This document shows, in pieces, positions 14,324 to 56,213 of a DNA stretch of 64,000 bases; the first letter of the stretch is position 1, and every line of letters begins with the position of its first letter. This DNA is from Mesotaenium endlicherianum (lineage: Eukaryota), in the NCBI GenBank assembly GCA_009602735.1, contig WELA01003517.1, positions 356,028 through 420,027 of the forward strand, in the 5' to 3' direction. The notes under the pieces were generated by a model that saw only the letters and a program-made list of their open reading frames with translations, was not told the DNA's origin and did no database searches. The translations under genes and the position numbers were made by a program.

Positions 14324-14324
14324 C

Positions 14325-17687: not shown

Positions 17688-18031
17688 TCATAAACACAAT
17701 GCAGTTAATGAAGTCATGATACTTTGCCGCTACTGAGTGCCCGTGGTGAAGAAGAACGTGATAGGGAGAGTCCCTAGTGTGTAGTACCTTGTGTGAGTGA
17801 GTATAAGAGAGAATTGAGTTAGAGAGAAAAAGTGAGTATGAGCGCAAGTTGAGTGTGTAGAATGGTTATGAATTTTGCCTGGTTGATCTCGAAACGGAAC
17901 ACATTCCCTCCAACTTAATCGTAATTTTGAAGGTGGGCTGCCTGTCAAAACTGTCACTATCTGTCACATTCCCCTCCGACTTATATGAAGACAGGACCTC
18001 CTGTCATTTGTCCATGTCCACTGAATGACAG

Positions 18032-21000
18032 TTAGGGAGGGGTGCCAGCCGCCCGAAGGTGGAACCGTTTCAACGCCCCTTTGGCATTGGTCAGCTGGTC
18101 TTTAAATTCCCAAGTGTCTCCAGAGGCATCGTAACCCTTCCATCTGACCAGGTACTTCATGACATATTTAGATGATCGACGGACAGAGCGGGCGTCTAAA
18201 TGTCCTCCACCTCATATTCCTCAGGTTCACCATCCCGGACAGCGGGGACCGGTCCCGGTTGGACAGGTAACCGACCTGTGAACAGTGTGTCACCTTTGAT
18301 GTATGGTTCCAGGAAGGAGACATTAAAGACCGGGTGATCCTTATATTCTGCTGACGTGTTCAGTTTGTAAGCATTTTGACCGACACGGCGCACCACCGAA
18401 TATGGACCCACCCAGATAGGACCAAGCTTTTTCTTGACCACACCAGGTAGGTACAGGTGCTGAGAATGCAATTTGACCAAATTGCCCTTAGAAAATGTCA
18501 GTTCTTGACGGTGCTGACTAGTATATTTTTGTTGGTCTGCCTGGGCTTTGTGCAGGTTCTGTTGGACTTCTGACAGGGTGTCAGCAAACTCCTGGGTTAA
18601 CTGGAGGGAGATCGAATTGTCAATCCCTTCAGGGTGAGTTAAAGATTCCCCTAGTACATTTGAAGGAGACTTAGGGACTCTACCCAGGCTCAGTTCAAAA
18701 GGAGTCTTGCCCGTTGACGCGTGCACCGCACTGTTGACCGCAATTTAGATTTGAGGTAACAGGTCATCCCAATTATCTTGATTTTGGTTAATGTAGGCTC
18801 TCGGTACCTCTTGCAGAACTCGTTTATTTCTTTCAGTTTGCCCATCAGTCTGAGGGTGGTTTGTTGTGCTGAGCAGCAGTTTGACTCCCATTAACCCCAT
18901 TGAAGCTCTCGAGAACTTAGAGGTAAATTTTGAGTCTTTGTCTGAGATGATATTAGAGGGTAGCCCATGTTGGCATACGACATGGTTGTAGAACTGTCTC
19001 GCTGTTTCGAGTGCAGTTTTGGGGATCAAAATGACCATTTTTGTCAATTTATCCACTACTACCAGTATCGAATCATGCCCATTGGCTAATCTTGGTAGTG
19101 TTACCACCCAATCCATGGATATTGTTTCCCAACGGCCACCAGGGATGGGCAGCGGTTGTAAGATGCCCCCCGATGGCGTGTGCCTAGACTTATTCCTTTG
19201 AATCTGGTCACAGGACATAATGTATTTTAAGACCTTCCGAGGTAATCCCTCCCAATGATAATGTTTTGCCAGCTTGCCAACAGTTTTGGCCTGCCTCAAA
19301 TGCCCACCCAGTAAACTGTCATGTGCTTGACTCAGTAAAAGGGACCTTATTTCCAAGTTATTAGGAATGACCAGCTTCAGCCTGCCTGAAGTGGTTTTAG
19401 TCACCCACACCCCTCCCTTAAGCCTATACCCGAGTGCAGTAGCAGGACACACACCATCAGTGGGGCTGGGCTCAAATGTTGGGTCAGAAAGGTAGGCTTT
19501 CTTAAATTGTTCAAGGAAGGACTTTTTCACCTTTAGTGAAGTGAGTGCACAAAGAACTTTATCTACAGCATGCTGACTAAAGTTCCTTTCTTGTTAGTCA
19601 GGTCTTCTAGAGAGTGTATCTGCAGGATTCAACTTTCCTGGTTTGTAGTCGATCTGGACTTGAAACTGCTCCACCATCTGGCTCCAACGGTTCTCCCTCC
19701 TGGACAGCTTGGACTTCTTTTGAAAGTGAGTCAGAGCTAGATGACCCGTAATCATCTTAAAAGCTTTACCATGTAAGTATGCTCTCCACTGTTTGAGCAC
19801 ATGAATGATAGCTAGCAGCTCTTTATAGTGCACTGAGTACTTAATCTCCGCTGGATTAAATTTCATAGACTCGTACATCACAGGATGCCAGTCCTGCCGT
19901 TCCTTACCATCCTTTGTGGTTTTGTCAGCAGGCTGCAACAAAATAGCACCAATGGCAAAGTCAGAGACATCAGTGACTACCTGCACCGATTTGCTGGGGT
20001 CATACACAGCTAGCACCGGGGCAGAACAAAGAGCATCTTTAAGGGTCTGGAAGGCAGCCTGCTGCTCTTCCCCCCACACATACCCTATGTCTTTCATAGT
20101 AAGGTCAGTTAGTTTACTGGCCTTTGTAGAATAATTCTCAATAAATCTCCTATAGTAGTTAGCCAACCCGAGGAAGGATCTAACTTCAGAGACAAACTGT
20201 GGTACTGGCCAGTGCCTTATGGTCTGGACTTTCTTAGGATCCATGCTGATCCCTTCTTTATTGACAACGTGGCCTAAGAAGTCAATACTTTCCTTAAAGA
20301 AATCACACTTGCTCATTTAAGCATATAAGTGATTTCTTCTCAGAGTGTCCATGACTGTCTTTAAGTGTTCAGCGTGCTGAGCTTCATCTTTAGAGAAAAT
20401 TAAAATATCATCCAGGAAAATTTGCACAAAGTTATCCAAATAAGGCCTGAAAATGTCATTCATAGCACCCATGAAGGTCGCAGGAGCATTAGTCAGTCCA
20501 AATGGCATCACGTTGAATTCATAGTGTCCATAACGTGTGCGGAAGGCAGTCTTGTGTTCATCCCCCTCAGCAATTCTGATTTGATGATAACCACTCTTGA
20601 GATCTATCTTACTGAACACCTTAGCACCAGACAAGGTATCAAGCAAGTCCTCGATTCTGGGTAAAGCATACTGTTCTTTACTGTAATTCTGTTCAGAGCT
20701 CTGTAATCCACACACATCCGCTTGCTGCCATCCTTTTTCTTAACAAATAGGATGGGTGATTTACTGGGGGAAATCTAACCATTTTCCTCAAACTCTGCAA
20801 TCTGTGTTTTTAACTCTTCGCTCTCCACATAGGACAAGCCATAAGTGCGTTGCCAGGGTGGCTGACTCCCATGTAATAAGTCAATCCTGTGATACACTTC
20901 CCTCTTAGGAGGTAGTCTCGGAGGCATATTAAAAATATCAGTGTATTGAGCAACAACTTTTGCAGCAGTAGGGTGCGCCGGAGGACTTACCTTTTTCTCA

Positions 21001-23250
21001 ACCACTTCTTTAGGTTGAAGGGGTACTTCTCTTAGCAGCAAACAGCACATTCTGTCTTCCCTCTGGTTCCAGCTTTCGATGAACTCTATTGCATTCAGCA
21101 ATTTGCAGCCTCTACTTTTCCTTCATTTGCCATCTATACAGGACAACAGGAAGAGCACTGGTGGGTGCCAAGTTAATCTGCCCATCAGTGGCTCCTCTCA
21201 GTTTAACCGTACCTCTGCTCCAACACACTTCAGCTTGATGTTTATTAAGCCAGGACCTGCCTAGCACGAAGTCATAAAAACCAGTATTGAGTACCTCAAA
21301 TGTAAGCGTTTCAATTAGAACTGCAGTGCCAGAACCTAACTGGACCTCCATAGGCTTGATTATGATTCCTCCGGGTATACTTGAGGCATCTCCAAATATT
21401 TTTCTATTCCCTTGGGTGACAGTAGGCTGCCTTAGCCGCTTAACTAAGTCCTTATGGATGAAAGTATATGACGCCCCTCCGTCAACAAATGCCCTCACCT
21501 TCCTACCTGCAATCATGCAATGCAGTAGGATAGGGGGGACTGTCTTTTCCTGACTTTCGCATTTTTCTCCTGACTTAACAAAGAAATGTTGGACATCAGG
21601 TGGAACAAGATCATCCAGAATGTGCACTCTCTGGAGATCTATATTGCTGATGGTCTCCTTTATCTGGTTGTCAGGCATGCATAGTGAATCCAGTTGAGCA
21701 AGACCCATAATCCCTGCTACGAGGGCAGCTAGTGACGACTCACTATCTCTAGCTTCCTCACAGTCAGTAGACTGGATTACTGACTGTTGCTGTCTTTTAA
21801 AGGCTCGTCTTTTCTCTCGACCTTGGGAAGGTGCTTGTCTGGACACTGCTCTCTGAAGTGACCTGCCTGCTGGCAATAGAAGCAAATCGGTTTTGCTGAG
21901 GCTGGTCTCGGCTTAGTCCTACCACCACCTCTTCTATAGCCGCCTCGAGAGAAACCACCTCTCTCTCTAGACTGCATAGCATTATACTCATACCCATATT
22001 CATCACCCTGATCATCCTCAGCCTGGTCTCCTTCAATTGCATTGTAGGAATCGTGGGGCTTTTTGACGACCTTGGACACCAAAGCATTACTTTGGCGCTT
22101 GTGATTGAATTGATGCTGATCTTTGGCATCAGCATCCTGGATCAAGTCAGTCAGTTTCTCATACTTCTTTTCAGCAAAATGACCAGAGACTTTGGATTTC
22201 AACCCAAACCTGAAGTATGCTATCCTATACCGCTCTGGCAAGTCTGGCTGCTTTGTCAGGTTTTCTTGGAACTTTTGAGCAAACTCAGCAACTGAAGTGG
22301 TCTTCTTCAGTGTCAGGGAGATCATCGCATAGATAGCTTTCTGCTGCTCATTGATCACATCAAACTTCTCATGCAGTTTCTTGACAATCTCTACCCAAGT
22401 AGGGTCACCGAGTTGTTGAGCCTTACACTCTCCTTTCCAGTACAACCACCAGTCTGCTGCACTGCCTTTCAGTAGAGCACCAGTGTGCCTGACCTTCTCG
22501 TGATCTTGCAGTTTTGGGTAGTTCTCCAGCCACTGCTCAACATCAGCAAGAAACTTGATCAGGTATTACTTTTTGTTCCCCTCCGGATCATAATCCTGGA
22601 GAGGTTTCGGCTTGGGCTTACTAGGCCCTCTGCCACTACCACCCGTGGTTTGAGATCCCAGTTGGTCTCGGTCTCGCAGTAGAGACATTATGATTCTTTT
22701 GTCCTCCTATTGGGACTGGTACATGCTCGCCATTTGCGATTGCATTTGCACGAACAATGCTCCCAGATCCACATTCTGAGGTGGGAGTCTAGCAAATGCA
22801 GCAGTAGCAACGGCATCAACTCGCTGAGTAGTGTCCTCAACAGTCCCTCTCGCTCCTGCAGCAGTAATTCCTGCCGCATTCAGCCGGTCACAAATTTGAC
22901 CTAGGGGCACATTGAGTTGTACAGCAGGAGGTGGGTTCAGAACATTGGCCCTTGATGCCATAAGTTCTTCGACAGTGCGCTCGTCCGCGGGCTGTCCTTC
23001 CCTCCTTTCTGTATCTTTAGCAGCTTTGCTAATCGTTCAACTTCTAATCTGGCTCTTTCCTCCTCAACCTGCTGTGCTGCGACTGCAGCAATAGCGGCTG
23101 TCTCATCTGCAGCCTCTTTAGCTGCAGTATCTGCCACTGCTTCAGAATAGGTACGGGTTCCCGCTACATCGCTTTCAGCCTGATTTTTGACATTCTCGTT
23201 ATCCTGTCTCTATGTCTCGGGAGTTGCTAATTTGAGACCTTGTCCTTACC
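18032..23250 (-). pseudogene. gag-pol of B1 (CCHC Gag, protease, RT, RNase H, integrase, chromodomain)
   Basis: [85 protein letters not shown]. Confidence 0.93.
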
Positions 23251-23286
23251 GTGCAAAGAAGACTGTGATAACAGCTCCGATACCAT

Positions 23287-24006
23287 TGAAATGAAATCGA
23301 CTTGCCAAATAGACAACTAACAATTAATAAAGATCTTTATATCAGCAAGTAATCTTTATGGTTATTTTCGTTAATTGAATTAAGAGCAAAGGACCACTCA
23401 CTAGCAGTGAATAATACTTGTAAGTCAAATGCAAGCAAACTAGCATCAATAATGCAATCAGTAAACTCACACATAAGCAAGGCTAGGAGACAGTGCATAT
23501 CAATGGCTTCTCGCCTTGGATTCAGATGTCTCTCAGTAAGCTGTACAAGAGAGTTGGCCTCGTTTCCGAATGTCGAACTCGAGAGCAATGCCTAGCATAT
23601 GTACATGGAATGAGTTTACTGTTCAACGGCCAGTGCGATGGCACCGCCTACCCGGGAGTTAACTACGTTGGTAGGACCTCGGTTAACCAAATCCACCGCC
23701 ATCTCCCATCATCCCGAATCGCCATCCATCCTAAGGATGTCATCTGGCCATTCATCTAGCACACCACACTTAGGTGCATATCTAGGCGGTTCGCTGCTAC
23801 CGAGTACGGAAGTTAGCTAGCTGTCGAAGAATGTGTCAGCAAGCTGACCTGAGTTGACTTCAGCCTGCTGCCCCCGGCTGAATCATTAAACTGACTATTT
23901 AATAAAGTCCAGCAGACTCAATGTTAAGTAAAGTTCAGCAGGGTGAACTTATTTAATTATAATGTTTAGATGAATATTATATCAACCAATATATTGATTC
24001 ATTACA
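23287..24006 (-). repeat. 5' LTR of B1 (720 bp)
   Basis: TGAAATG...CATTACA on +; homologous to 39699-40415, 56214-56935 and 63503 onward. Confidence 0.93.
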
Positions 24007-25130: not shown

Positions 25131-25899
25131 TAACCAAGTTCTTGGAAGTAAGACAGAAGCTTCCACTTTTTAGCAGGCTCTTTGTCTGAGTTGATAGGTT
25201 CACAATTGACAATAACTCTAGGTCGCAAAAATCACGTACGAACAATTGATAAAGAAAACGAAGTTGATAAAAAAAAAGTCTACACGGGCTTTCCCTTGAC
25301 TTTCAAAAGTACAAGCTTACAAAATTCCGAATGCTACAACAAACCTAGTCTAGCGCGACTGAGCTTCTTGCTCTTAGCCGTGCTTGCCAGATCTTCACTG
25401 CAAGCTGGAATATCTCACTCCTTCACTGAGAGTTTTTCTTACTCAATCTACTTTTAATCTGACTCCTGAAAACTTGGAAAATAATACAGAACCTGCTCTT
25501 TGCACGCTTGTGGTGTCCGTCCCAATTTTGCACTAATTCTAGTCTGCAAGTTTTATCATTTTAGGGAGGATGGCCTTCCTAGAATGTAACTTCTAACGTC
25601 CAAAGCGTAGCAGAATGGAAGAAGAAATCTTCAAGCGTCAGGGGATGTGTGCCTTCTTAGGCTCCTTGTGGCCTTGGGAAGTCCTTCTCCTTTGCACCTT
25701 CTTCTTCCTTCCCCTCCTTTTTTCTCCATCTCCTTCCTTCGCTTGTCTAGAAAATGAAAGCAAAAAATGAGGGTGAAGTGCGCATAACTTATTCTTTACT
25801 CAAGCACCTGCATGCATTAACCTCAAAGTTAGCGTTTAAGTTTGACTTATTTCAAATTAAGGTCAAGTGCGCTTTGTGAAACTGGGACTATGCAAGTAA

Positions 25900-26900
25900 T
25901 GGTTGGCACATAATAGCAGCCACTGGGACAATGCATTGCCATGATTGGCTATGGAGTACAAGATCAATAAGCAGGGCTTGTCGGCCTCGCACTCTCCATA
26001 CTTCCTACTCTATGGACAACAATCAATCTTGCCACTCGCTGCCAGGTTCGTTGCGGACAACGTCTTCACCTCAACATCCCAAATACATGGAGTGGCTCAA
26101 TTATGTGACGTGCTCAGCTCGTTGAGCGCCTGGTGCCCATGGCTTTGGACAATCTCTGCGCATCGTGAGGTACGCCATAATCCAAGGAGGGCCTATCGTC
26201 CTCAGGTGCTACAAGTTTTTGTAGGTGATTTTGCCTTCCTACTACGCCAGATAAGCACCCTCAATACCAGCAGCTTACCTGTTCTCCTACGGGTCAAGCG
26301 CGTTTTGGCATGAGAAGTATGCTAGAGCTGGAAGGTGTGGACGATTGCCTGCACAACTTGGATCTGCAGTTGCGTTCCCTAGGTGCTCGGCCGGCCAAGG
26401 ACTGGACATGCACACAGTCCCGGACGCAAGGGTAAGATGCTGCCTTGCGACAATTGCAACTTTGGCTTCCACATCAACTGTCTGGATTCATCGCTGATAG
26501 AGGTGTCCCTAGGTTAATAATTTTGCACCAATTGTTCCACACTAGGACTCGGCAGCATCAGCAACCCACTAGCCATGGTTGAAAGTTGGAGGGTAAAATA
26601 GAAATATATGAATATTTGCCTCTACATTTGGCCATGAAGTTACATGAGTTGTAGACGTCATTGCGGCAAAGCCTACTGATCCGACCCACATTGCTCAATA
26701 CTGCTGATGCACACTTGACCTCTTGATAAATGACAGCTGTCATGAATTATTAGCTTGTGCTTGCTATAACTACGCACCTCTACAAGTATGTGAAAGTTAC
26801 CTTAAAATCACCAATTGCATTTTCATTTTCAAGATAATTGGATACGCATATATTTTTGAAGCTTAGAAAAACGTTGAACATCAAGCCAGCTTCTCAACAC
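25900..26900 (+). mobile_element. Diverged relic of the element-C family: integrase C-terminus, PHD finger, purine tract, B repeat, palindromic junction and start of A
   Basis: LAMEYKINKQ..SHSPYFLLYGQQSILPLAARFVADNV resembles LAMGYKFSKQ..SHSPYVLLYGRQPVLPAAARIVAENV; CDNCNFGFHINCLD; B-like TAGACGTCATTGCGGCAAAGCCT; junction ATGACAGCTGTCAT at 26730-26743. Boundaries approximate. Confidence 0.85.
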
Positions 26901-29114
26901 GATTGGAATAAGAATGTTTGAGACTTTGACCCTATTTTTTGTCATTTGGCCACATGTATTGCGGATGTCATTGCAACAAAATTTGATGACAAAAATTGCT
27001 TTGCTGAAGACTAGGTATAGTGTGGGCCCAATATTGGTTCCAGAACCAAATTGAACACCACCACTAGCCAATTTTCTACGCCCCTATTTCTGAAGTTATA
27101 TAAATCAGAATTAAATGATTCAAGTATGCCTACATCCGTATGGACCCAAAGAGTACGGCAAAAATGAGTTTGTTGCAATCGGACACGTTCGCAGGAAGAT
27201 ACGCCATTTTGCCTGCCAAGAAATAGGTGAATTTCAATCAAATTTAGTCACTTTTGTTGCGGACTCGACCTTTTAACGCACGACAAGTTACATGCAAGAG
27301 TATGCTAAATCTTATGGTCAAAAATCTTACATAGACCAACACATGCTAGGCATATCTTCAAATGAAGATTTGTAAGGAAGGAAGCCTCCAATAACTATTT
27401 TTGACGTGCTCATAAAATTTGAGCTTATTTTGTAGAATATACCTATGGTAACCTATACTAGAAGTATTTTTCCGATTGTGGATTATTAAATACGAGGTAT
27501 GGGGGAATTGCTAAGGTAGGACCTTTAGGAGGGCCGTGGTTCATCGTGGAGCCATGGGCGACCGCAAGAGATTGCACTGAGGGTTTAAAGTACCTTATAT
27601 TAAATTACAAATATCTCAAGAAGTAACCAACCAAATGATTGCATTGTAAGACTTGCTCAAATGTTTACACATGTGTAACTTGCAGGGATATAAAAGAATA
27701 ATTAAATTATATGAGAATGGCAATGCAATTGGGTGCTTTAGGTTGACTTAGTCCTAATTTTCACATACTAAAAACTTGACCTCCACACACTTAAATGTCG
27801 ACATGGTTGTGGTGTTCACAAGCTAATAAACTATCCCAATGGTCCTCAAATGTCCATACGCACCTTTTGAAATGAATTGATTCCAATTGTAAGAGCCTGG
27901 TGACTACTTTCTACCAATGAAGAGGACTGTTGGTTGTCCAAAAGGTTTTCTTTGATCTCATATATTTCGATAGGTTGAAAATGTGAAAATCGATAATAAA
28001 GAATATCAAGAACGTCTCACGTGAAATATTAAGATAGGAAACGTACAATGGATTCACTTCTTTGTACAATCCAATCCAAATGGGGTCAATTCCTATAGCT
28101 TCTCGTGTGGATCCAAGTTGAATCGCTTTGTGACTTGAACATTTTCAAGGTGGACGTTAAGCCAATGAAGGGTGGGGGCAAATTTGCCAGTGATTTACTC
28201 TTAAATTTTTCAGGCCTTCAACAACCCTTTCAACATGACCAAACTGCCTCTCAAGTCCACCTTCTGATTGACCCAATTCTAACATACTGGCAAGACAAGC
28301 AACTTTGGCCCAATGCATCACGCACACAACTTCCACATCAGTCTACTACAATCACCAAATATGTGGAATGAATTGACTTACTTATAAGCGATCAACCATT
28401 CACAAAATTTCTTCATATGAGCAAGTAATCTTTATGGTACTTTCTAGTTAACTTATGAAATTGTAAAAGACCACACAACTATCATAAGCGATACAAGTTT
28501 AATGCAAACAACGAGCACCAATCATGCAAGCAGTTAATTTATACATAAAAAGGTTAGTAAGCAGTTCGTGTATCGGCTTGCAGTCTTGAATTCAAATATT
28601 CTCTTAGTAATGTGTACATATAATTGGCCTCGTTTTCGAATGCCAAAATCGAAGGCAACACCTAGCATATGCACATTGAATGAGTCGACTGTTCAACGGC
28701 AAGTGCGATGGCACCGCCTACCCGAGGGTTTAATCACGTTGGTGGGACCTCGGCTAACCAAATCCACAGCCATCTCCCATTGTCCCAAATCGCCATCTGC
28801 CTAGGGCGTCATCTGGCCATTCATCTAGCATATCATACTGAGATGCATTACTAGGCGGTTTAGTAATTCCATTTAGGGGGTCAGCTGGCTATCAAAGGAT
28901 GTGCCAGCGTATTGACTTGAGTTGACTTCAGCCTGCTACTATCGGCTGAGTCATTATACTGATTAAAACTAGATTCTATTATATAGAATATAAATCAAAA
29001 TTCTGCCGAGTGAATTTGATAAACTATTACAATCGACTGCACAATTATGTCTAGCAATTTACTGATTTATTATCATTCCTCTAACTTAAATTTTTGTCAC
29101 CTCGACAATACCTT

Positions 29115-31192
29115 AATACATATTTCTATGTTCTCGAAGCTCTATCTCCAGAAAAAGTAAAGCTACACCTTGACCTACATCGTCTATCAGGTGGCCTTCT
29201 GAACAACTCAAATTCAAGCAGAGTAGGACCTCTAGGTGATTGCAGCAAAATGACATCCCTCTCTTGTACAATTTACAGACTAACAGGTACAAAAATGGGG
29301 GCCTTGGAAGGGTGTTGCATGACATTGGCCAGTGGCACATTGCCTTGGGTAAATGGACTTGCTGGTGCCCTTCTGACTACCAATTACTGGCAGCTCTCCT
29401 GTTGGCCCTGTCAGATTGAGACTCATCCCCCACTGCTAAGGTTTCCCTGCTGCTGCTTCCCAGGTAAGTTATGTCCTTCTCCTGAGCTGTTGCTTTCTCG
29501 TCTGCCTCCTGTAATTGCCTCTGGAACTGTAGAGCCTTTTCGGCAACAGAATGTCCAGCTTGCTGCAGTGTAGTAGGTCTTGCAGGAGGTTAGAACCTAG
29601 CAAGGCTAGACTTTGTCCCTTAAGTTTAGATTTCCAGGGTGCAATGTGAGGTGGCAGGATGACGTTGCCATTTCACTTGGAGTGAAAGTCATCTGCCCTG
29701 GTCTTGTCATTCTTGTGTTCCTTAATGATAATGGTCATCTAGCGCCAGTTCGTAGGCTGCTGGAAGAAAGCAAGGTCCCTTCTCTTCAGCTGGCAGGGAT
29801 ACCAATGGGGCTGCAAATAGCAGGTGGCTAGTCAACCTGGCCAAGAACTCCTAAGTTCTCTTCTCTATCTCATTATACGGGGACCGGAACCTATTTCTTG
29901 GTCGCACGTGCTTAAATCTATCAGATTACATGCAAATTATCCTGATGAGTCTGTGGGATCCCACTATTCCTATGTAACGATTTGAGCTTTTTTGGTGTAT
30001 TTGGGACGTTTTCCTGATAACCTAAAAAACGTTATACTATTTATCAATATTTTATTTGATAAATTATTGTATCTTGTTGAATTAATCGACACACGCATGT
30101 GCCAACTAATTCTTGGTCGATTGGCGAAACGACCTGATTGCTATTGCAAAAAGCATCGTAAAGTATTTTGATTATTTTGCAAAAGTACGACATAATTAAT
30201 CATGAAGCTACTTTGATTAATTGTGAAGGAAGAACTTAGTTACTTATTGATTAATTAATTTATTATGACTTTCATTATTTAACCCAAAAGAGAACACCTT
30301 TGAAGTGGCCACCTATCGGATTTGACCACGCGACCTTTCAGCCGAACAAGTTATCCCCCTTCGACTGTTTCCGTTGAACATGAGCCAGTACCCTAGATGG
30401 TGACTTGAAGCACTCCAGTGCCTCACGTTGTGCAAGTATATATACTTGCAAGAGTCATTGTGAGTGCAACTCTCACAAGCACAGATTTTATGCTACTTCC
30501 TTTTTGCTTTCTCCAGGATTGTTACTTATTCAAAATTATCGTTATTTTCTTTCCACTAAGTTTTAAATTATCCTTGAATACCGAGGAAAAGATTCTCAAG
30601 GAAGCAGAAACGTTCAGAAACGTTACCTCCTGGCACTGGAACTGTTGGGTCTTCAATATGGTTGGCCAGTACTTTGGCCTCTCTGGCACTATATCCCACC
30701 ATTCCGACATAGTCCTCATACAGGACGAGACCAGTATGGGTCTCAATATACATGTCCAGGGCTTCTTGCCCCTGTCTATGTAGAATCTTCTGTTGGTCTG
30801 TCTTCTTAATCTTTTGAGCAACCATAAATGTCTCCCTCAAGCTCTCGTCCACCACTGTGTACCAACAGCTCTTGTGCAGCCTTTGCCATTCCTTTTTTGC
30901 CTTCTGCTACCTCTTCATTTTAACAACCCTGTCCTCCGCAGCCTTTCAAAGTTTTTCCTCCTCACCTTTTCTGTCCTCCTCATCTTTTTTGAGTCTTTTC
31001 TCTCCAGCACTTCTAAGCCTCTTCTCCTCTACCTGTTTTTTTTGAGCCTCTCGTTGTTGTTGCAAACAATCTGCCTTGCGCCCAGAAATTGTAGTCGCCT
31101 CTATGTCTCAATTATATTTTGCTGTAGACTCCCTTTGCCTGCTCTGCTTTCAACTTCTTGATTTCGTCATTTTGCTTGGTCATCCTGCTCAT
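29115..31192 (-). pseudogene. Divergent homolog of the family-B extra ORF (split by a solo LTR)
   Basis: MSRMT start; GLVLYEDYVGMVGYSAREAK vs GLLLYHDYAMMVGYTVREAK; NRFRSPYNEIEKRT*EFLAR vs NRFKAMYNEVERRSWEFLAR. Confidence 0.75.
29973..30627 (+). mobile_element. Family-D solo LTR
   Basis: TGTAACG...CGTTACC termini; flanks TCCTA/TCCTG; removal restores the interrupted reading frame (VPG|IVG); homologous to 33223+ and 42756+. Confidence 0.8.
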
Positions 31193-33222
31193 ACACGCCA
31201 CAACTTAACTTAGTGTGGTCATAGAGTACCTTAGAATTGGATCAAGGAGTCAGAGCATGCAAGAAGGTCACCGATTGTTTAGCAAATAGGTAATCGTGCA
31301 ACCATAGAAATCTGGATATACCTTGTATGAGTAGAAAGATGGGCAAGCAAGAACGTTTCAGTGAGTGAGTGAATGTGTGAGTAGTTGAGTGTGGGTAGTG
31401 CTCTATGTAAGATGCAAATTCGGACCCCAAGAAGCTGTCATCCTCCCTCCAACTTAACTTAAGTTGGACTACACGTCACAAATTGTCACGTAACTGTCAC
31501 TTTCTGTCACTTTCCCCTCCAACGTAAATGGAGAAAGGACCTCCTGTCACCTTCCCATGTCAACTGAAATTACAATTAAGGTGGTGTATTCGCTTCTCGG
31601 AGCTAAAAGCGTTTCAACGCGCCCTTTGTGTTGGCCAAATGGTCCTTAAATTCCAAAGTGTCCCCAGATGCATCATTACCCTTCCATTTGACAAGGTACA
31701 TCGTGACATGTTTAGATGATCGACGGATGAAGTGTGCTTCTAAAATCTGATCAACTTCATACTCCTCAAAATCACCATCCAAGACCACAGGGACTGGTCC
31801 CGGTTGGACAAGTATCCGACTGGTGAACCTTGTATCACCCTTAATGTAAGGTTCCAAGAAAGAAACATTAATTATTGGGTGGCCCTTGTATTCCGCTGAC
31901 ATGTTTACTTTGTATGCATTCTGACCGACTCGACGTACCACCAAATGTGGACCAACCCAGACAGGTTAAAGCTTTTTCTTGACCACCACCAGGACCTTAT
32001 TTTGTCAGTTTGTTCACTAGTACCAGAATAGAATCATGCCCATTGGCAATTCCCAGTAGTGTTACCACCCAGTCCATTGAGCTGGTTTCCAACCTTTCAG
32101 CTAGAATAGGTAATGGCTGCAATAACCCTCCAGGTGGTGTGTGTCTAGGCTTATTCTTCTGACACTGATCACAGGCCTACCGAGGCAAACCTTCCCAATG
32201 GTAGTGTTTTGCCAAATCTGCCAACTGTTTTGGCCTGCCTCAAATGCCCACCCAATAGATCGTCATGAGCCTGACTCAGCAGCAAAGACCTTATTTCCAA
32301 CTTATGTGAGTTATTTGGAATGACCAACTTCAACCTGCTTAAAGAGATTCCATTCATCCGGATCCCTCCCGTTTGCCTGTACTTGAGTGCTGTAGCAGGA
32401 CACACAACATCAGTTGGACTGGACTTAAATATTGGGTCAGAAAAGTAGGCTTTTCTAAGTTGTTCAAGGAAGGAATTTTTCACCTTAAGTGAAGTGAGTG
32501 TACAAATGGTTTAATCCACAAAATGGTGATCAAAGTTCCTTTCTTGCAAGTCAGGTCTTCTAGAGAGAGCATCAGCAAGATTCAACTTCTCTGGTTTGTA
32601 GTCCATCTGGACCTGGAACTGCTCCAGCATCTGGTTCCAGCGGTTCTCCCTCCTAGATAGCTTGGGCTTTTTCTAAAAGTGCGTCAAAGCTAGATAATCT
32701 GTAAATACCGTAAACGCTTTCCCATGTAAGTAGGCTCTCCCTGTTTGAGAACATGGATAATAGCTAGCAACTCTTTATCATGCACAAAATAGTTAATCGC
32801 AGCTGGATTGAACTTCATATACTCATACCGCACGGGATGCCACTCCTGCTTCATCAAGCCATTCTTTGTGGTCTTGTCTGCAGGCTGCAACAAAATAGCA
32901 CCCATGGCAAAGTCAGAAGCGTCAGTAACCATCCGCACAGGCTTGCTGGGGTCATACACAACGAGATTTGGGGAAGAGCACAGAGCATCTTTAAGGGTTT
33001 AGAAGGTAACTTCCTGCTCTTCCCTCCACACATACTCTATGTCCTTCTTAGTAAGGTCAGTCAATTTTTTGGTCTTAGGTATAATGATTCTCAATAAATT
33101 TTCTATAATATTCAGCCAATCCAAGAACGAATTTAACTTATGAGACAGATTAAGGTACTGGCCAGTCCCTTATGGTCTGGACTGCCTGTGGGTCAACACT
33201 AATACCTTCCTTACTGACCACA

Positions 33223-40415: not shown

Positions 40416-40439
40416 ATAAATGTGCTGTTTGTTGAGAAT

Positions 40440-42755: not shown

Positions 42756-42782
42756 TGTAACCATCTGAGCACTTTAGACGTA

Positions 42783-43792
42783 TGTCATGATTCATTAAGT
42801 CGAGGTTGACGTACGAACCAAAATCTACGTGTGTGAACCATCAACCTAGGAAGACCAACTTTGCATTGACTTTACGCATCCATATGTTGACCTTCTCTAG
42901 ATTTCCGAGTCACCAAAGTGTAGCGCGTCGAAGCATCTACCGAAGGGCACCGATTTTGCGTCATTTGGTTAATTATCGAGCGAGATAGACGCGATTTAGT
43001 CCGCACTCCTTTCGGCACCTAGCGGAATCACACCTAATGGCCAACTTGTGACTCAATGCACCCCAAGGCGAGAATGTTGACCATTCGTGACCCCAAGAAC
43101 CCCTAGCTTTGTGCGCACAAATCCGCGAGCCCTTTAGACTACATAAGTCTTGCATTTCCACAGTGTAAGTGCATCATTGAGGCTATAACTTGGTGACTGC
43201 ATCACCTACTCCTAGAGGAAGCTTCCTCAAGTTTCAGAGTCACTTTTGAGGCGCTATCTAGGTAGAACTACCCAAGGTAAGCTCCACGAATGAGAGACAC
43301 TTAGCATATTTTACGTGCTTTGCTTTGATTGGTTTGAGTTATGCTTAGCCTATAAGAGTGCTAGTACATGCCTTGTACACATTAGTGGAAATAGAAGAGC
43401 CTCCTAGAGTGACTACATGCATTGGATCCGCCGCATACGACGCCGGGTTTTCAGGAGTATAAGTGCTAGAGATGTCCCTAGAGGAACATCTTTTCAGAAG
43501 TCCCATTATGCCAGTTGTAAGTCACAGAGATTATCAGTAAAGCTTACACTTTTATCTCTTGTGTTTTCAGGACCACTTTGTCCCTCTCTTGTGTAGAGCA
43601 AGCCTTTTTGGCTTCCAATCACTAGAAGAACTTCACAAGCGGTGAGCAATGTCACAGCTCATACCCCCTGCCATAGGACTACTCTTGAAGATCATGATGT
43701 GCTTCCAGTGATCTTTTGGGCCAGACTTCATTAGTTGTTTTCCTACCAGATTACAGTCTTGAGGTGCTCACTCTGGAGAGTACACACTCCTT
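42783..43792 (+). repeat. Repeat A1 (1010 bp)
   Basis: Direct repeat of 54848-55856; identity stops abruptly after CTCCTT, with no terminal CA. Confidence 0.95.
43458..43501 (+). promoter_or_regulatory. Predicted core promoter of element C: TATAAG at 43458, initiator CA with +1 at 43488
   Basis: 30-nt TATA-to-Inr spacing, conserved in A2; the predicted +1 coincides with the segment complementary to 43793-43805. Inference. Confidence 0.55.
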
Positions 43793-43805
43793 ACTTCTAA
43801 AAGAT
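43793..43805 (+). promoter_or_regulatory. Putative self-priming primer-binding site ACTTCTAAAAGAT
   Basis: Immediately after A1; complementary to ATCTTT(T)CAGAAGT at 43488-43501 and 55553-55565; no TGG-type tRNA PBS present. Confidence 0.65.
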
Positions 43806-43841
43806 CTCTCTTTGCCTGCACGCAATTAGAATCTTCAGCGT

Positions 43842-48180: not shown

Positions 48181-50216
48181 GTGCCACTTGACATCTTGGA
48201 TTGTCGCGCGGCAGAGTCCCCCCTCTACGGCTTCATGGCGCTGGACGATGGTTGGTCTGTGGTTTAGACCAATAAGGGGGGAGCCGAGGATGACGAGGTC
48301 TCCGTCGGCGCCGACTTACTGGAGACGCAGGAGGAGGATCCCGAGCTGTCTGGTGCCGAGCTCCACCTCACGCCCCAGGAGCAGGCTGACGCTCTAGCCG
48401 CACAAGCCAGGGAGACAGTGCGGATCTACGCCGCGCATAACGCCATGGTGCATCAGATGGCGGCAGACGCCGTAGAGGCACACGCCGTTGCCACGGCTGC
48501 TCTTACTGCTGCAGCTCACGCTCATGACGCAGCCACAGCCGCAGCAGCCATACCTCAACCACAGCCTCCTGCGACGAGCAAACCCTCCTCAAGATCACAC
48601 GTCCGCGTACGGCATGACGTGCCTGTGGGGGTCGCCATCCAGTATCGCATGGCCTCCCAGTCGCCCTCACCCTCACTGTCGCACAGGACAGGCGACTCAT
48701 GGCCACGCACTACTACGTCTGAGGACGAGGCCATGAGGCAGGCAGCGTTCCCAGGCAGGTCCGACGACGCGTCATTGAGCAGCGAGGAGGAGGAGTGGCA
48801 GGAGTGGTCCCAGGAGGCCGCAGAGGAGCCCGCAACCCAGCCATCGGCAGAGCCACCGCCGCCCACGCCTACAGCTCGCGTCCGACGCCAGCCTACAGGG
48901 CCTCCCGACTTCAGTTCTCTCTCACAAGAGACCACGGCCAATCCCCGTCGAGCCCATCCATGCGTCGGCGGGTCTAGTCGTCCGATACAGCACGACTGTT
49001 GGACCAGCAACGAGTGCCGTGACGTCACGCACTTGTTCGCTGGCAACAGCCTGAGCACAGGCTGGCCAGGTCGCGCCTCCGCCAGCACTGCCTCCACGGT
49101 TCCTTTCTCCGCTATCGACCCGCGTGCCGAATGTGCGCACCAGACAGTGGCCAGGATCAGCATCCTCGGTCCTTGGCGTACAGGTCCTTCCCCCTACGCC
49201 GGGCCAGCTCTACGCTTCGCACGCCGCACTCTGCCCCTAGATCGGCGTGCACGCGAGGTCACTTCGATCCGCGAGCATACCAGGGCTGCCCGTGAGGAAC
49301 GCCTCTGCGCGACACTCCCAGGGATGCACGAGAGGTCACTCCTCTTCGCGAGGGGAGAGAGGTCACTCCTTTGCGCGAGACGCGCCCGCGCTCAGTCACA
49401 CCGCAGTATGACGGTCCGCGCGATCTCCGCACCCGCGAGCATGACGCACAGTCTTCCTCCACCACTGCAGCTCACGCATTATACCAGACGCCGCCTGGCT
49501 GGCCTGCCGACGTCCCGCGCAGTCACATAGCCGGCTACGGGCCGTCTGGGTCACCTCCTCATAAGGTGGCCCGCACCGCTGCGCGCCTCCGCGACCGTCA
49601 TCCTCATCCGCACGCAACACGCGCAGGGCCCATGTAGCGCAGCCAGCGGGAGCGCGTCCGACTCCCATCTCTTTCGCCGCTACGCCCGCGAGTCCAACTC
49701 GCCCCACGTCAGCTCGTCCGTCCTCGACAGGCAGCACATTGGGACGAGCGCTCCGTTTGCACAGTGCCCCTTCAGGCGGATCTTCGCGAGCGTCAGCGTT
49801 CGTACTTTGATCAGCATTCCTAGCTGCCCCAGCGCACCGCCACAGAGCAGCTAACCCACGCCACTTCACACCACGCAGACTACAGGACGAGGGACCGGTG
49901 GCAGCAGCAGCGCGTGCGCGACGCGCAGGCTCTGGCCCGCCCAGTGCCCGAGGAGGCCTTGCAGGACGCGCGTGCGCGCTGGCGCACTTATCAAGCACAT
50001 TCTTGCACGGCTCGCCCGCAGCCGCTGCTCGAGCGCATTCCTCGACTTACTCGCCACTACGCAGAGCTCGCAGTGGCGGCCCTCCGCATGGCGCCCCATC
50101 AGCACAGTCTGCTGCGCTCCTATCCACCGCCAGCGCAAGCCGGCGATCCCGCCCTGGGTTGTCGCCCCCTTCCTACGCCTATCTACATCGCACAGCTCAA
50201 CGAGCGTCCCGGCGGC

Positions 50217-51160
50217 ATTGTCCTTGTCGAGCTCTTCGCCGACATTGCGACAGGGTTGTTGGCCACCCTACAGGCTGGCATCCCCGTACGTCGGTACGTC
50301 TACGTGGACCCCGATGGCGAGGCGCAGCAGGTCGCCCGCAGGCAGATGGCCTTATGCCACGAGCGTTTCCCAATCCTCTTCCCTGAGCATGCCTTCTACC
50401 GCGCCCAGATTGACTGGCCCATGGACATCCGCGACATTACCGCCAAGCACATCACGCGCCTCGGGCCCATCGACCTCATCATTGCTGGTTGGAAGTTCCA
50501 GGGCTTCTCCATTGCGGGACGGGGCAACGGGCTCGGTGACCCGCGTACGACCTTGTTCTGGCACCTGCTCCGCGTCCTCAACATGGTTGAGGACCGCCAA
50601 TCGCCGCACACGCTCGCCTGGGTGTCGGAGAACGTGGCTGTCCGCCACGATTCTCGGCCCAACGTCAGCGCCGACTTTTCCCTCTACAGCACCTACGTCG
50701 GTCGTGAGGCCGTCATTGACGCAGCTCAGATTAGTTCCTTCGCGCATTGTGTGCGCGCCTACTTCACCCACGTGGCCATGCTAGGCACGCTTGAGGCATT
50801 AGCGGCCGCACATCCACGCAACACGCGCAACGTTGACTCCATCCTCGACGTGGCGCGCCTGGCCCAGCGCGTGGTTGCCCTTCCGCATCCTTCTCAGGCC
50901 CAGTGTGAGGTCCTCCGCGACGTCATGCGGGCGCTTCCTACGTTCGTGAGTCGCTACGACAGCGCGGCCTACGTCGGCGACCAGCGCGGCATGATCATTG
51001 ACCTCGAGACTGGCATGTTCTAACGACCCCGTGCCGTGGAGATGGAGTGTGCGATGGGATTCCCTCCGCACCTCACACAGGTGGACGGCATCACCGAGGT
51101 CAACCGCGTGCGTCTCCTTGGCCAGGCTATCGATGCCAACGTCTTGACGTGGATTCTCCT
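50217..51160 (+). pseudogene. C5 cytosine DNA methyltransferase domain within the Pol of element C (this copy disabled)
   Basis: Ordered motifs I VELFADIATG, II YVD, III DIRDI, IV DLIIAGWKFQGFSIAG (catalytic Cys position reads Phe), V GLGDPR..LF, VI ENV, VIII AHCVRAYF, IX EMECAMGFP, X LLGQAID; same frame as the downstream RT. Confidence 0.9.
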
Positions 51161-51699: not shown

Positions 51700-54600
51700 A
51701 CGATCTTGGGCGCTACACAGGCGACCCTATGAGGATCCCCCTCCAGACAGACGTGCCCATCTTCCAGAAGCGCTATCGTTACAACCGCTTTGAGGACGAC
51801 CTGATCAGCACGTAGACAGGCAAGCTAGAGGAGTGTCAGCTCATTCGTGAGTCTGCCTCCACCTACGCTGCGCTCACAGTCATGCCAGCTAAGAAGGACG
51901 CCTCAGGCAACTGGTCTTAGAAGAGGATGTGCGGTGACTATCGTAAGCTTAACAAGGTCACTAAGCAGGACAGACACCCTATGCCGACCCCTGACGAGAT
52001 CTTCGACGACATCGGCGCTTGTACTTGGTTCTCGGTGCTGAATTTGAGGCAGGGCTTCAACCAGATACCCATTGCGGAGGAGGACCAGCATAAGACGGCT
52101 TTTTGGAGATCGCAGCGTCTGTACGAGTGGAGGGTTATGCCCTTCGGCTTGAAGAACGCTCCTGCCACCTTCCAGCAAGTCATGGATAAGGAGCTGGCAG
52201 GGCTCTCCTTTGCCCGGTGCTACATCGATGACGTGCTCGTCTCCAGTGAGACGTTTGAGGAGCACGTGGCGCATATCACTACAGTTCTGGACCGCTTGGA
52301 GGTCGTTGGGCTCAAGTGTCATCCAGGCAAGTGCACCTTTGGGACCCGGGAGGTGGAGTACCTCGGGCATCTTTTGTCTTCGAGTGGTTTGGCTCCTCAG
52401 CTGGCCAAGATCTTGACCATCACAGGCATCCCGCCGCCGACCGACCTCTCGCAGCTGAGGGCCTTCCTTGGCATCGCCAACTACTATCGCCGCTTTGTGC
52501 CTGGGTTCAGCGAGCTGGCCAAGCGGCTCAACGACTTGCTACGCAAGGGCGTTGCCTACGAATGGGGACCAGAGCAGCAGGCAGCGTTTGACAAGCTCAT
52601 GGAGCTGTTGGTGTGCGCCCCAGTACTACGGCGGCTTGACTATCAGAAGCCCTTCATCCTCCACACCGACTGGTCGCAGGCAGGGCTTGGAGCAGTGCTG
52701 GTGCAGGAGCATGACAGCTTCGAGCATGTGGTGGCGTACGCCAGCCGTAGCAACAACCGTGCCGAGGGCAACTACGGCTCCTATGAGTCGGAGTCCTGGT
52801 AGTAGTATGGGCAATTGTGCATTTCAGGCACTATCTCTACGGCACCCACTTCCGCTTGGTCACCGACCATCAGCCACTCAAGTGGCTCATGACGTCGGAG
52901 CGCCTGACGGGCAAGTACGCACGGTGGGCGCTCATCTTGCAGGAGTACACCTTTGACGTGCATCATCGTCCAGGGTCCACGAACTTGGACGCTGACTGCC
53001 TCAACCGCAACTCGCTGCCCTCTTCGCGAGACCTCATGGTAGCCCGCCACGATGAGGATGAGCCAGTGGCCTGGCACGCAGCGGCATTCTTGGCCTTCAC
53101 TGTTGACGACGACGTGCGGCCCACAGGGCTCACTAGCCTAGACATGGTGACTGTCACCACTCGACGACTCGCCTTGGCAGCAGCTAAGGAGCGGGACAGC
53201 TGGCAGCGCGGGCCCGAGGACGTGTGGGACAACACCCCGGTGCTGCAGTACGTCACGGCCAAGGAGTTGGTCCCAGGCATTAGTGCGCGCGAGCGTGACC
53301 GCGTCATGAATCGTAGCCGGGACTTTGTCTTCATGGAGGGGCGCATGCGGCGAGTGATGGTGGACGGCTCTGTCCTGGTGGTCCCTGAGCCCGCTATACG
53401 CAGCCAGCTGGTGCGACGTGTGCACGAGACGCTTGGACACTTCGGTTTTAAGCGCACTCTCAGCCTCCTCCAAGCTCAGTACTGGTGGCACGGCATGACT
53501 AAGGTTGTCGCCGACGTCGTCAGCAGCTGCACACATTGCGACCGGGTGCGCTCAAGCTTCACAGCCCGCACCGTCGCTCTCAGCCCTCTCCCTATTCAAG
53601 GGCTGTTCTACAGATGGTCGCTCGACTTGGCTGGGGAGCTGCCCAAGTCTCGCCGAGGCAACCTCTATGTCTTGGTGATGATCGAGCACATGTCCAAATG
53701 GGTCGAGCTTGTGCCGCTGCCCAGCAAGGCCAGTGAGGGGATTGCTCAGGCTTTCCTCGAAAAAGCCCTTAGCCGCTTTGGCGGCTGCGCTGAGGTCCTC
53801 ACTGACCAAGGCAAAGAGTTCCAGGGCAGCTTTCAAGAGCTGCTAGAGCGCTCGATGATCGACCACCGCACCACCTCCCGCGACCATCCCCAGGCTGACG
53901 GCCTCGCAGAGCGCATGGTGCAGACCGTCAAGCTTGGGCTGCGGAAGTACTGCCTGGCCCACGACAGCACCCATTGGGACGACGCCCTCCCATGGTTGGC
54001 TATGGGGTACAAGTTCAGTAAGCAGGCCTCCTTGGCCTCACATTCTCCCTACGTCCTTCTCTACGGCCGACAGCCAGTCCTGCCCGCAGCAGCCAGGATC
54101 GTGGCCGAAAACGTTTTGGACCTGGACAGTCCCGAGACGTGGAGCGCTCTTATCGGGCAGCGTGCACAGCTCTTTCAGCGCCTGATGCCCATGGCCATGG
54201 ACAACCTCAGCATTGCTCAGCACCGCGACACACTGAGGTATGCCATGACTCGTGGAGGAGCCTATCGGCCGCGAGTGTTGCAGTTCTCCGCAGGTGACTT
54301 CGTGTACCTGCGACGCCAGACAAAGAACACCCTCGACACCAGCAGCTCGCCCGTCGTCCTACGCGTCAGGCGTGTCTTGGCGTCAGGAGTTCTGGAGCTG
54401 GAAGGCGCAGATGGCCGTCTTCACAAGGACCACACAAAGAATTGTGGACCATGCCACCTTCCTAACCTTGACATGCAGATTCGTCCCTGCGACGCAAGGC
54501 CGCCCAAGGACTGGGCGTGCCAGATTTGCCACAGCCCCGGCCAGGAGGCCAGCATGCTGCTATGCAACAGCTGCAACCTCGGCTTCCACATCGGTTGCCT

Positions 54601-54700
54601 TGACCCGCCGCTGGCCCGCATGCCAGCTGGCGACTGGTTTTGTAGCGACTGCACTGCTTTAGCTCTAGACAGCGATCACAGCCCATCAGCTTGTGGCTGA
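51700..54700 (+). pseudogene. RT-RNase H-integrase-PHD region of element C
   Basis: MCGDYRKLN, MPFGLKNAPATFQ, YIDDVLV; TDWS, TDHQPL; HETLGH..CTHC, SLDLAG, LTDQG, AERMV; a few stops and one frameshift near 52800. Confidence 0.95.
54518..54652 (+). other. PHD finger (C4HC3) fused to the integrase C-terminus
   Basis: CQIC...MLLCNSCNLGFHIGCLDPPLARMPAGDWFCSDC. Confidence 0.93.
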
Positions 54701-54712
54701 GAGCTGGGGGGG

Positions 54713-54845
54713 GAATTAAAACATTTGACGCGTGACGTTTGGCTATAAAGCCACACCTATTATAGACTTCATTGCAGCAAAGCTTGCTTGCATGTTATGC
54801 ATTGCTTGTGTCATTAATACGCACCCGACCTCCTACCGCACGACA
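54713..54845 (+). repeat. Repeat B1 (133 bp), directly after a G-tract (54706-54713, PPT-like)
   Basis: Direct repeat of 55857-55993; ends CACGACA. Confidence 0.95.
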
Positions 54846-54847
54846 GC

Positions 54848-55856
54848 TGTCATGATTTATTAAGTCGAGGTTGACGTACAAACCAAGCTCTACGTGTGTG
54901 AACCATCAACCTAGGAAGACCAACTTTGCATTGACTTTACGCATCCATATGCTGACCTTCTCTAGATTTCCGAGTCACCAAAGTGTAGCGCGTCAAGGCA
55001 TCTTCCGAATGGTACCGGTTTCGCGTCATTTGGTTAATTATCGAGCGAGATAGACGCGATCTAGTTCGTACTCCTTTCGGCACCTAGCGGAATCACACCA
55101 AATGGCCAACTTGTGACTCAATGCACCCAAAGGTGACAATGTTGACTATTCGTGACCCCAAGGACCCCTAGCTTTGTGCGCACAAATCCGCGAGCCCTTT
55201 AGACTACATAAGTCTTGCATTTCCATAGCATAAGTGCATCATTGAGGCTATAACTTGGTGACTGCATCACCTACTCCTAGAGGAAGCTTCCTCAAGTTTC
55301 AGATTCACTTTTGAGGCGCTATCTAGGTAGAACTACCCAAGGTAAGCTCCACCAATGAGAGACACTTAGCATATTCTACGTGCTTTGCTTTGATTGGTTT
55401 GAGTTATGCTTAGCCTATAGGAGTGCTAGTACATGCCTTGTACACATTAGTGGACATAGGAGAGCCTCCTAGAGTGACTACATGCATTGGATCCGCCGCA
55501 TACAACGCCGGGTTTTCAGGAGTATAAGTGCTAGAGATGTCCCTAGAGGAACATCTTTCAGAAGTCCCATTATGCCAGTTGTAAGTCACAGAGATTATCA
55601 GTAAAGCTTACACTTTTATCTCTTGTGTTTTCAGGACCACTTTGTCCCTCTCTTGTGTAGAGCAAGCCTTTCTGGCTTCCAATCACTAGAAGAACTTCAC
55701 AAGCGGTGAGCAAAGTCACAGCTCATACCCCCTGCCATAGGACTACTCTTGAAAATCATGATGTGCTTCTAGTGATCTTTTGGGCCAGACTTCATTAGTT
55801 GTTTTCCTACCAGATTACAGTCTTGAGGTGCTCACTCTGGAGAGTACTCACTCCTT
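54848..55856 (+). repeat. Repeat A2 (1009 bp)
   Basis: Direct repeat of A1; separated from B1 only by GC. Confidence 0.95.
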
Positions 55857-55993
55857 GAATTAAAACATTTGACGCGTGACTATCGTTTGGCTATAAAGCC
55901 ACATCTATTATAGACTTCATTGCAGCAAAGCCTGCTTGCATGTTATGCATTGCTTGTGTCATTGATACGCACCCGACCTCCTATTGCACGACA
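55857..55993 (+). repeat. Repeat B2 (137 bp), right end of element C
   Basis: Direct repeat of B1 with a 4-nt indel; abuts A2 with no spacer; followed by TSD CGTA. Confidence 0.95.
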
Positions 55994-56213
55994 CGTATTT
56001 AGGACGTTTTGCTAATTACCTCAAATACATTATACTTTTTGTTTAAAAAAGATTGCATATTTGTTGTTTAATTAACACATACGTGTGCCAACTACTTTTG
56101 GGTTGATTAGCACAATGACCACACTGCTATTGCAAAATCAAATCGTATAATTATTTCAATTACTTCGCAAAAGTGTAACTTAATCATGTCGCAATTGCTA
56201 TCCGGTTGACGGT

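Follow-up and report, generated by a model that had tools for sequence, protein, structure and literature searches.

A dead Gypsy-Dnmt3-type retrotransposon in Mesotaenium endlicherianum and a candidate integrase site inside the repeat of its family

The DNA analysed here, which we call the window, is a stretch of 64,000 nucleotides from Mesotaenium endlicherianum (contig WELA01003517.1), and all coordinates refer to it. It holds the relic of a retrotransposon at 25867-27285 and a longer relative, element C, at 42783-55993. Nested, decayed Gypsy copies of other families occupy 7828-8204, 14324-23900, 28338-33400, 35637-42780 and 56012-64000, and one other Gypsy copy (9453-10457) carries an SH3 and a chromodomain. 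GC-rich host gene fragments lie on the minus strand at 1-3100 together with CAG and GA simple repeats; a Pfam search of the frames tested there gave no match. The parts of the relic are listed below, with A and B denoting the repeated segments.

25867..26574, plus strand: decayed C-terminal half of an integrase, SH3-like region and PHD finger (tblastn to the pol of element C, E 5e-31)
26581..26593, plus strand: decayed purine/G tract GAAAGTTGGAGGG, predicted plus-strand primer (PPT), aligning with GAGAGCTGGGGGGG of element C
26594..26735, plus strand: B1, with GACA at its end (homology to B1 and B2 of element C)
26732..26741, no strand: internal junction GACA-GC-TGTC, that is, right end, 2 nt and left end; predicted integrase cut site (sequence)
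26738..26905, plus strand: A2, TGTCATG at its start, only 168 bp (homology to A of element C)
26906..27012, plus strand: 5' part of the likely B2, from the first base of B (61% to relic B1, 67% to B2 of element C)
27013..27249, no strand: unrelated 237-bp insertion within B2, with ACT on both sides (alignment)
27250..27285, plus strand: 3' part of the likely B2, ending GCACGACA (in register with the head of B2; 75% to the B2 tail of element C)

A preliminary description of this DNA had named an integrase-PHD, a purine tract, B, a palindrome and A-like sequence in this order, and all of these pieces were found where it had placed them. The integrase-PHD region was 70% identical to element C 53927-54405 over 484 columns (blastn) and contained six in-frame stops and several indels. 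The 5' part and the left end are missing, and the upstream DNA had no RT or DNMT match; with its left end missing, the relic stood outside the tests of target duplication and priming site described below. Relic B1 was 62.6% identical to B1 and 63.5% identical to B2 of element C, with local scores of 75 and 85.5 against shuffle maxima of 44 and 46.5 (0/300 shuffles as high). The block at 26738-26897 was 64% identical to the first 160 bp of A in element C, a score that 0/100 shuffles reached. The homology of 26594-26735 to B and of 26738 onward to A, on which the earlier reading depended, was significant against shuffles in both cases. Six later 200-bp blocks of element C's A were searched for in the relic and none had a significant match, so that a long A was rejected here. 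The shortness of A2 reflects either truncation at the joint or a short-A subfamily.

The preliminary description had found no B2 for this relic. A B2 does exist, at 26906-27012 plus 27250-27285. For its 5' part, 0/200 shuffles were as good with each of three B queries; the tail alone was not significant (14-16/200 shuffles against element C's B, 89/200 against relic B1). The 8-mer GCACGACA occurs elsewhere on the plus strand of the window only at the ends of B1 and B2 of element C, and position 27285 is likely the right end of the relic. A second copy of the 237-bp insertion was sought in the 64-kb window and none was found. Relic B1 and B2 are only 61-67% alike, which is at the limit allowed by about 20% decay per copy; B2 is therefore likely, not certainly, part of the same insertion and may belong to another copy.

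The palindrome at the junction, described before as a retained 14-bp unit, is real in the relic, but its conserved core is only 10 bp: element C has just GACAGCTGTC, a 10-mer identical in the relic (26732-26741) and element C (54842-54851). As 13 perfect palindromes of at least 14 bp occur in the window, the 14-bp palindrome was rejected as the conserved unit. The extra symmetry in the relic probably arose by CpG decay of ACGACA to ATGACA. Across the junction a 14-nt run, GACAGCTGTCATGA, is identical in the relic and element C and has exactly two occurrences in the window; the chance of such identity was estimated, roughly and post hoc, at p 0.002 from flank identity and 0.05 from codon-position-2 identity. 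Taken by itself, the relic gives weak evidence of a heritable layout: no selection acts on a dead copy, and with decay of about 20% the survival of 14 unchanged bases is not improbable.

Element C is inserted in the 3' LTR of another Gypsy element and consists of A1, a gag-like frame, a Dnmt3-like domain, RT, RNase H, DDE integrase, PHD, G-tract, B1, GC, A2 and B2, in this order.

42779..42782, no strand: left target-site duplication CGTA (sequence)
42783..43792, plus strand: A1, starting TGTCATG and holding a TATA box and the predicted transcription start (96.4% to A2)
43793..43805, plus strand: predicted site of self-priming, adjoining the end of A1 (12/13 nt complementary to 55553-55565 in A2)
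50214..51020, plus strand: Dnmt3-like cytosine methyltransferase domain in pol (PF00145, E 1e-7; best PDB match DNMT3A, E 9e-9)
51921..54700, plus strand: RT, RNase H, zinc-binding and DDE integrase, and PHD, in interrupted frames (Pfam)
54699..54712, plus strand: G-tract (PPT) (sequence)
54713..54845, plus strand: B1 (96.2% to B2)
54842..54851, no strand: internal junction GACA-GC-TGTC (sequence)
54848..55856, plus strand: A2 (self-comparison)
55857..55993, plus strand: B2, ending GCACGACA (self-comparison)
55994-55997, no strand: right target-site duplication CGTA, adjoining the end of B2

The uninterrupted copy of the host LTR (29973ff) has CGTA once, which confirms the duplication. In run X1, 32 contigs diverge into unlike flanks exactly before 54848; because the breaks fall before the start of A, TGTC is the left end of the family in this organism. 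Pfam matches in element C were RVT_1, RT_RNaseH, Integrase_H2C2, rve and PHD. Its integrase (53216-54697) has the D, D and E residues with 34 residues between the last two, where the usual spacing is 35, and its best PDB match was foamy virus integrase. A tyrosine recombinase was sought by Pfam in the 72 frames of at least 70 aa of element C (one N-holding frame in part) and none was found. An inner B-like block within A was considered and rejected. Between gag and the methyltransferase, 44850-50200 is about 5 kb of very GC-rich, low-complexity, coding-like DNA that is longer than its counterpart in the metagenome relatives; it includes an internal 345-bp repeat (45884-46227 / 46455-46800, 73%) and gave no family match above the cut-off.

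The pol order RT-RNase H-integrase and the DDE integrase of element C are those of Ty3/Gypsy elements, as are TG...CA ends with a target duplication (4-6 bp in that group), of which the 4-bp form was found in element C and, within one mismatch, in 14 of 17 other insertions. The repeats depart from that group, since the PPT is followed by B and not by TG, and A1 stands without B and does not end at a GACA terminus. At the integrase C-terminus, where chromoviruses have a chromodomain, element C has a PHD finger. A Dnmt3-like domain upstream of RT and A-coding-B-A-B repeats are traits that it shares with the Gypsy-Dnmt3 type. What the relic preserves of this repeat is B-GC-A'-B, with the left A and the methyltransferase region missing. 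The relic derives from a Ty3/Gypsy family of this type with the layout A...B-GC-A-B, and is a dead copy that has lost its 5' part. It is an ordinary fossil of an unusual family, and a minor witness, of value for having pointed to the pattern across the family.

Comparison of the relic and element C supported the claim that the relic is independent of C and diverged from it. Their integrases differ at 22.6, 19.5 and 47.4% of codon positions 1, 2 and 3, and C>T and G>A changes dominate. The excess at third positions (47% vs about 20%) indicates that the two lineages replicated separately under purifying selection, the remaining differences being decay. An integrase tree that retained all of its 88 rows placed the relic as sister to element C with support 1.0; its long branch is inflated by frameshifted segments and was left out as a distance. 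When layout was mapped onto this tree, A...B and A...B-A-B copies were intermixed; the two forms did not differ in age (p=0.67).

Relatives were sampled from metagenomes as the best 80 of 576 loci, 69 of them distinct at a 98.5% cut. Among these 69, B-GC-A followed the purine tract in 31, the element ended at B in 28, and 10 were uninformative. The junction pattern with its fixed 2-nt spacer was present in 33/80 loci (29/69 distinct) against a background of 0.07 per 520 bp, counts that include C>T/G>A decay products, and two further loci had the junction behind an interrupted B1. Another 33/80 loci (28 distinct) stop at B, mostly at a GACA-type end, and continue into unrelated flank; 12/80 (10 further distinct) are interrupted or incomplete. 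Of the 41 metagenome loci whose upstream DNA exceeded 3.5 kb, 35 gave a tblastn match to the methyltransferase. A DNMT search of longer proteins gave one uninformative match. A scan of viral contigs found no relatives. The closest named proteins were from Klebsormidium, Calypogeia, Riccia, Marchantia, Closterium, Haematococcus and Chromochloris. K. nitens P0001 and P0012 were among the top integrase matches, and the integrase-PHD proteins of this alga, which are not tied by accession to the published element, fell in the same broad tree group.

Six contigs of eukaryotic appearance (L081-L086) come from prokaryotic bins (Synechococcales, Halorubrum, Mollicutes, Halanaerobiaceae), probably through binning contamination. 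In L082, B1 and B2 are 100% identical. L083 and L084, at 45-46% integrase identity, have the G-tract, a B of about 60 bp and the same palindrome, and gave no methyltransferase match in their short upstream DNA. These two have no visible B2, and L005 and L081, in which junction and A run straight into leader sequence, look like collapsed assemblies; all four were used for the junction and the priming site only. The same order of parts, found in 31 of the 59 informative distinct metagenome loci, which fall in three other subfamilies, supports the earlier proposal that the permuted layout is a heritable family trait. The order was also seen in the contigs with 45-46% integrase identity and in Gypsy-14a of Chlamydomonas.

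Gypsy-14a/14b, Gypsy-21 and their neighbours are entries of the Chlamydomonas reinhardtii repeat library v3.4, deposited as sequences, with no comment in the parts covered here, in the supplement of PMC9940879. As given there, Gypsy-14a has a TGTC start, an integrase, a stretch that by eye is PHD-like, a G-tract, a B of about 50 bp, GACA-GC-TGTC, A, and a B ending GACA; it differs in its shorter B. Among the first 10 matches to GACAGCTGTC listed in this library, nine were in such Gypsy entries and eight of these lay beside a G-tract. Gypsy-21 is parsed in the library as an LTR plus an internal part that begins GC-TGTC. We considered whether Gypsy-7a_cRei (active, with a PHD and a 'left LTR lacks final 8 bp') could be a member with a tiny B and rejected it, as the entry starts TGTGG and its internal part TGG. 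Its LTR entry has a G-tract near the end and then about 25 bp ending GACA, a different end anomaly (PMC9940879).

Insertions across the family have the ends TGTC...[GA]ACA with 4-bp target duplications, perfect in 10/18 and within one mismatch in 15/18 (shuffle maxima 6 and 7), the three failures being L007, L078 and L079. Among A...B copies 6/7 had the duplication within one mismatch. The 2-nt GC spacer is absent from both element ends. In family 1, B ends in a short tandem sub-repeat of CACGACA units, which confounds a census of spacers, and this census was left out of the counts. The right ends of L029 and L043 lie one sub-repeat unit before the junction position, yet both have perfect 4-bp duplications, so that integrase or repair is able to use an upstream GACA. 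In L062 (about -8315..-7779 and 234..590 relative to the integrase end) the left end is an inverted duplication of A, and on the right B2 breaks off after some 15 bp. Such aberrant ends on both sides are expected of a failed two-ended insertion.

Inside the elements, B follows the G-tract with no base in between in all subfamilies, and the length of the B|A junction is constant wherever B and A adjoin. The A2|B2 joints vary by -2 to +1 nt, and one retains a G of the tract. Larger losses or filler occur at this joint in L018, L031, L032, L057 and L082: on the A side only 75 bp are left in L018 and 168 bp in the relic, and L032 has filler. Read by eye, about 10 of 22 family-1 A2|B2 joints show the same full-length form, a likeness that could also stem from inheritance. 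Shared flanks make at least two pairs of loci (L016/L020 and L042/L059) non-independent. A mirror form, A-B-GC-A...B, was sought as B before A1 and found in 0 of the 18 loci (17 distinct) with A1 visible, a count that excludes L005, L081, L083 and L084.

A tRNA-type TGG start is absent at the predicted priming site of element C. The site's complement in A2 lies 30 nt past TATAAG, so that the predicted 5' end of the RNA is complementary to the site after the 5' repeat, as in Tf1-type elements. A self-priming complement of 12-22 nt, by which the sequence following A1 could pair with a site within A, was found at 11/17 loci compared with 2/85 controls, and in 9 of the 11 positive loci it lay 30-36 nt past the TATA box. 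The six negative loci include three with mis-set borders, and the A1 of element C itself gave no match. The pairing is preserved in four subfamilies (element C, two metagenome families and L081), although the sequences involved differ. In poly(A) RNA runs the promoter region of A (55553-55993) of some copies was transcribed, mostly on the plus strand, and there were few integrase reads. In run X22, whose reads are from other copies of the family, plus-strand depth climbs from 16 to 67-96, and 11/35 molecules have their 5' edge at 55583, 30 nt past the predicted start, which maps the RNA start roughly.

From these genomic footprints we propose, with moderate confidence, that the layout arises because integrase cuts the palindrome inside the LTR and not at the tips of the cDNA. 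The RNA would start about 30 nt past the TATA box in A, as the RNA and priming data support, and its 5' end would pair with the sequence just after A1 and prime the minus strand in the manner of Tf1. The G-tract before B would then prime the plus strand, giving by standard LTR reverse transcription a cDNA with B-GC-A at both ends. Since an LTR by the usual rule extends from PPT to primer site, B-GC-A would be the repeat that is copied, with the integrase sites in its middle. Integrase would cut GACA^GC / TGTC after each CA, and the two processed ends with 2-nt overhangs would be inserted, which is the step that the observed termini and 4-bp duplications reflect. The true cDNA ends, the end of A and the start of B, would be fused by error-prone end-joining, consistent with the ragged joints, and the data fit joining either before integration (as a 2-LTR circle) or after it.

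A cut at the left copy would yield A...B-GC-A-B, which would be able to replicate again. The A...B copies would be dead-end by-products formed via 1-LTR circles, double cutting or annealing repair. The main gap is the mirror form, which a symmetric circle model predicts as often as A...B-GC-A-B and which was never seen. Its absence would imply either one-sided (left) cutting or the collapse of right-cut products to A...B, and the roughly 1:1 ratio of A...B-A-B to A...B (31 to 28) would fit such a collapse.

A possible though less probable variant keeps the same ends and the same cut site and derives the A...B copies solely from recombination between B1 and B2 after insertion. B1 and B2, 85-100% alike, are separated by about 300 bp, and L026 (about 3961-4440 after the integrase end), a solo A-B with a perfect CAAT duplication, indicates that recombination between repeats does occur. 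However, A...B copies were not in excess among older copies (13/26 young vs 15/26 old, p=0.78, at low power), and their share, 28 of 59 informative loci, is high given that the repeats measure 115-180 bp.

We consider it unlikely that the ends are rebuilt from a template, as for PAT and Ngaro. The RNA would reach B2, RT would copy the A2|B2 joint, and B1-GC-A2 would serve only as the template for the ends, with integrase using ordinary ends or a new circle junction. Such rebuilding directly explains the absent mirror form, and it is suggested by the A1...B1-A2-B2 layout known from those elements (PMC6681497, PMC8969392), by RNA fragments that end within B (55926, 5/18 in X22) and by the likeness of about half of the A2|B2 joints. 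The priming site after A1 and the G-tract before B1 nevertheless delimit B-GC-A as the repeat that is copied, with B2 lying beyond it, and the joints differ between close copies whose neighbouring sequence does not. Templated rebuilding alone also does not yield many A...B copies with intact duplications. This model explains the mirror gap but fits the priming sites and ragged joints less well.

That a tyrosine recombinase, the element's own or borrowed from DIRS elements, acts at the junction with integrase as a passenger is very improbable. The layout is typical of tyrosine-recombinase elements, but it is accompanied here by 4-bp duplications of unrelated sequence, which largely refute this reading and which DIRS elements lack as described in PMC8969392. 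The 2-nt GC is lost at the ends, the termini are TG...CA, the DDE integrase is conserved and element C has no recombinase frame. Finally, the layout might have been an accident of a single copy that caught a circle junction or tandem fragment, the relic being its decayed duplicate and element C that copy. This would agree with their being sisters on the tree and is refuted by the third-position excess between them and by the same order in at least five other lineages, which leaves it next to no credibility.

The split-direct-repeat layout of TOC1 is like that of PAT and Ngaro. PAT, Ngaro and VIPER resemble the present family in having A1...B1-A2-B2 with an internal copy of the end-to-end junction (PMC6681497, PMC8969392). 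In these accounts PAT, Ngaro, VIPER and TOC1 are characterized by a tyrosine recombinase and by no target duplication, whereas in the present family a DDE integrase goes together with 4-bp duplications, a G-tract and a priming site. Of the features that define the DIRS order, element C thus has the split direct repeats and has neither a tyrosine recombinase nor insertion free of duplication. The layout shared with PAT and Ngaro is convergent.

Returning to the internal cut that we favour, the closest biochemical parallel we cite is foamy virus, whose integrase cuts the palindromic LTR-LTR junction after CA on both strands and leaves 2-nt 5' overhangs (Delelis et al. 2005, PMC1180852). The junction here is likewise a palindromic CA-NN-TG, and the predicted cut geometry is the same. 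The foamy virus junction is made by joining cDNA ends and belongs to a side route of debated weight, whereas the junction of the present family is encoded inside the repeat and would be the sole source of integrable ends. Cleavage of the 2-LTR junction has been the subject of HIV-1 reports (PMC1905944, PMC4372172). The palindromic junction of MLV was reported to be a poor substrate, according to titles cited in PMC1180852, and this counts against the mechanism. For priming, the parallels are Tf1/Sushi and the plant Tcn1 chromoviruses, described as having no tRNA site and predicted self-priming (PMC6317226, PMC11042837); they differ in their ordinary LTRs, integrase sites at the tips and a chromodomain rather than a PHD finger. 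In Tf1 the ends of the cDNA bear remnants of the primer and bases that are not templated (PMC11042837), which fit the one- or two-base variation of the ragged joints here.

The layout itself is already on record, and the mechanism is what we propose here. KnitGypsy-Dnmt3 of Klebsormidium nitens was described with DIRS-type repeats, A-coding-B-A-B, and Gypsy domains in the legend of Fig. 4c of de Mendoza et al. (2018, PMC5890265). Compared by description and not by sequence, it resembles element C in its Gypsy pol with a Dnmt3-like domain and its A-coding-B-A-B repeats. The main text of that paper gives no mechanism and does not contain 'palindrom', 'junction', 'target site' or 'PHD'; an internal cut site, self-priming, ragged joints, the A...B form and methyltransferase-less relatives are absent from the description it gives. 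Terms of the Gypsy-DNMT3 type occurred in the searched literature only in de Mendoza et al. (2018) and in a 2026 preprint, which mentions streptophyte Gypsy-DNMT3 only in passing. This literature, to which subscription papers, Repbase reports and Craig's 2021 thesis do not belong, gave no account of an internal cut site, self-priming or two product forms. The clade is probably under-annotated, because its copies fail the two-whole-LTR criterion of plant surveys such as that in PMC6317226, which selected on it.

In a broader form, to which we lean only slightly, an old clade spanning chlorophyte and streptophyte algae and bryophytes would have relocated its integrase sites, once at the cDNA tips, to a fixed palindrome within the LTR, and each productive insertion would need internal double-strand cleavage by integrase together with host end-joining of the true cDNA ends. 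LTR elements and retroviruses are held to integrate from linear cDNA ends, with 2-LTR circles as dead ends. Junction cleavage by foamy virus integrase in vitro has so far been a side note, and the present family appears to make such a reaction its only route. If true, this clade would be convergent on the Ngaro/PAT layout and would escape any LTR finder for which both LTRs must be whole, and it would be a natural system in which the disputed route with the circle junction as integration precursor is obligatory. An old question about integration is thereby made testable, with a 10-bp substrate and with relatives in a laboratory alga.
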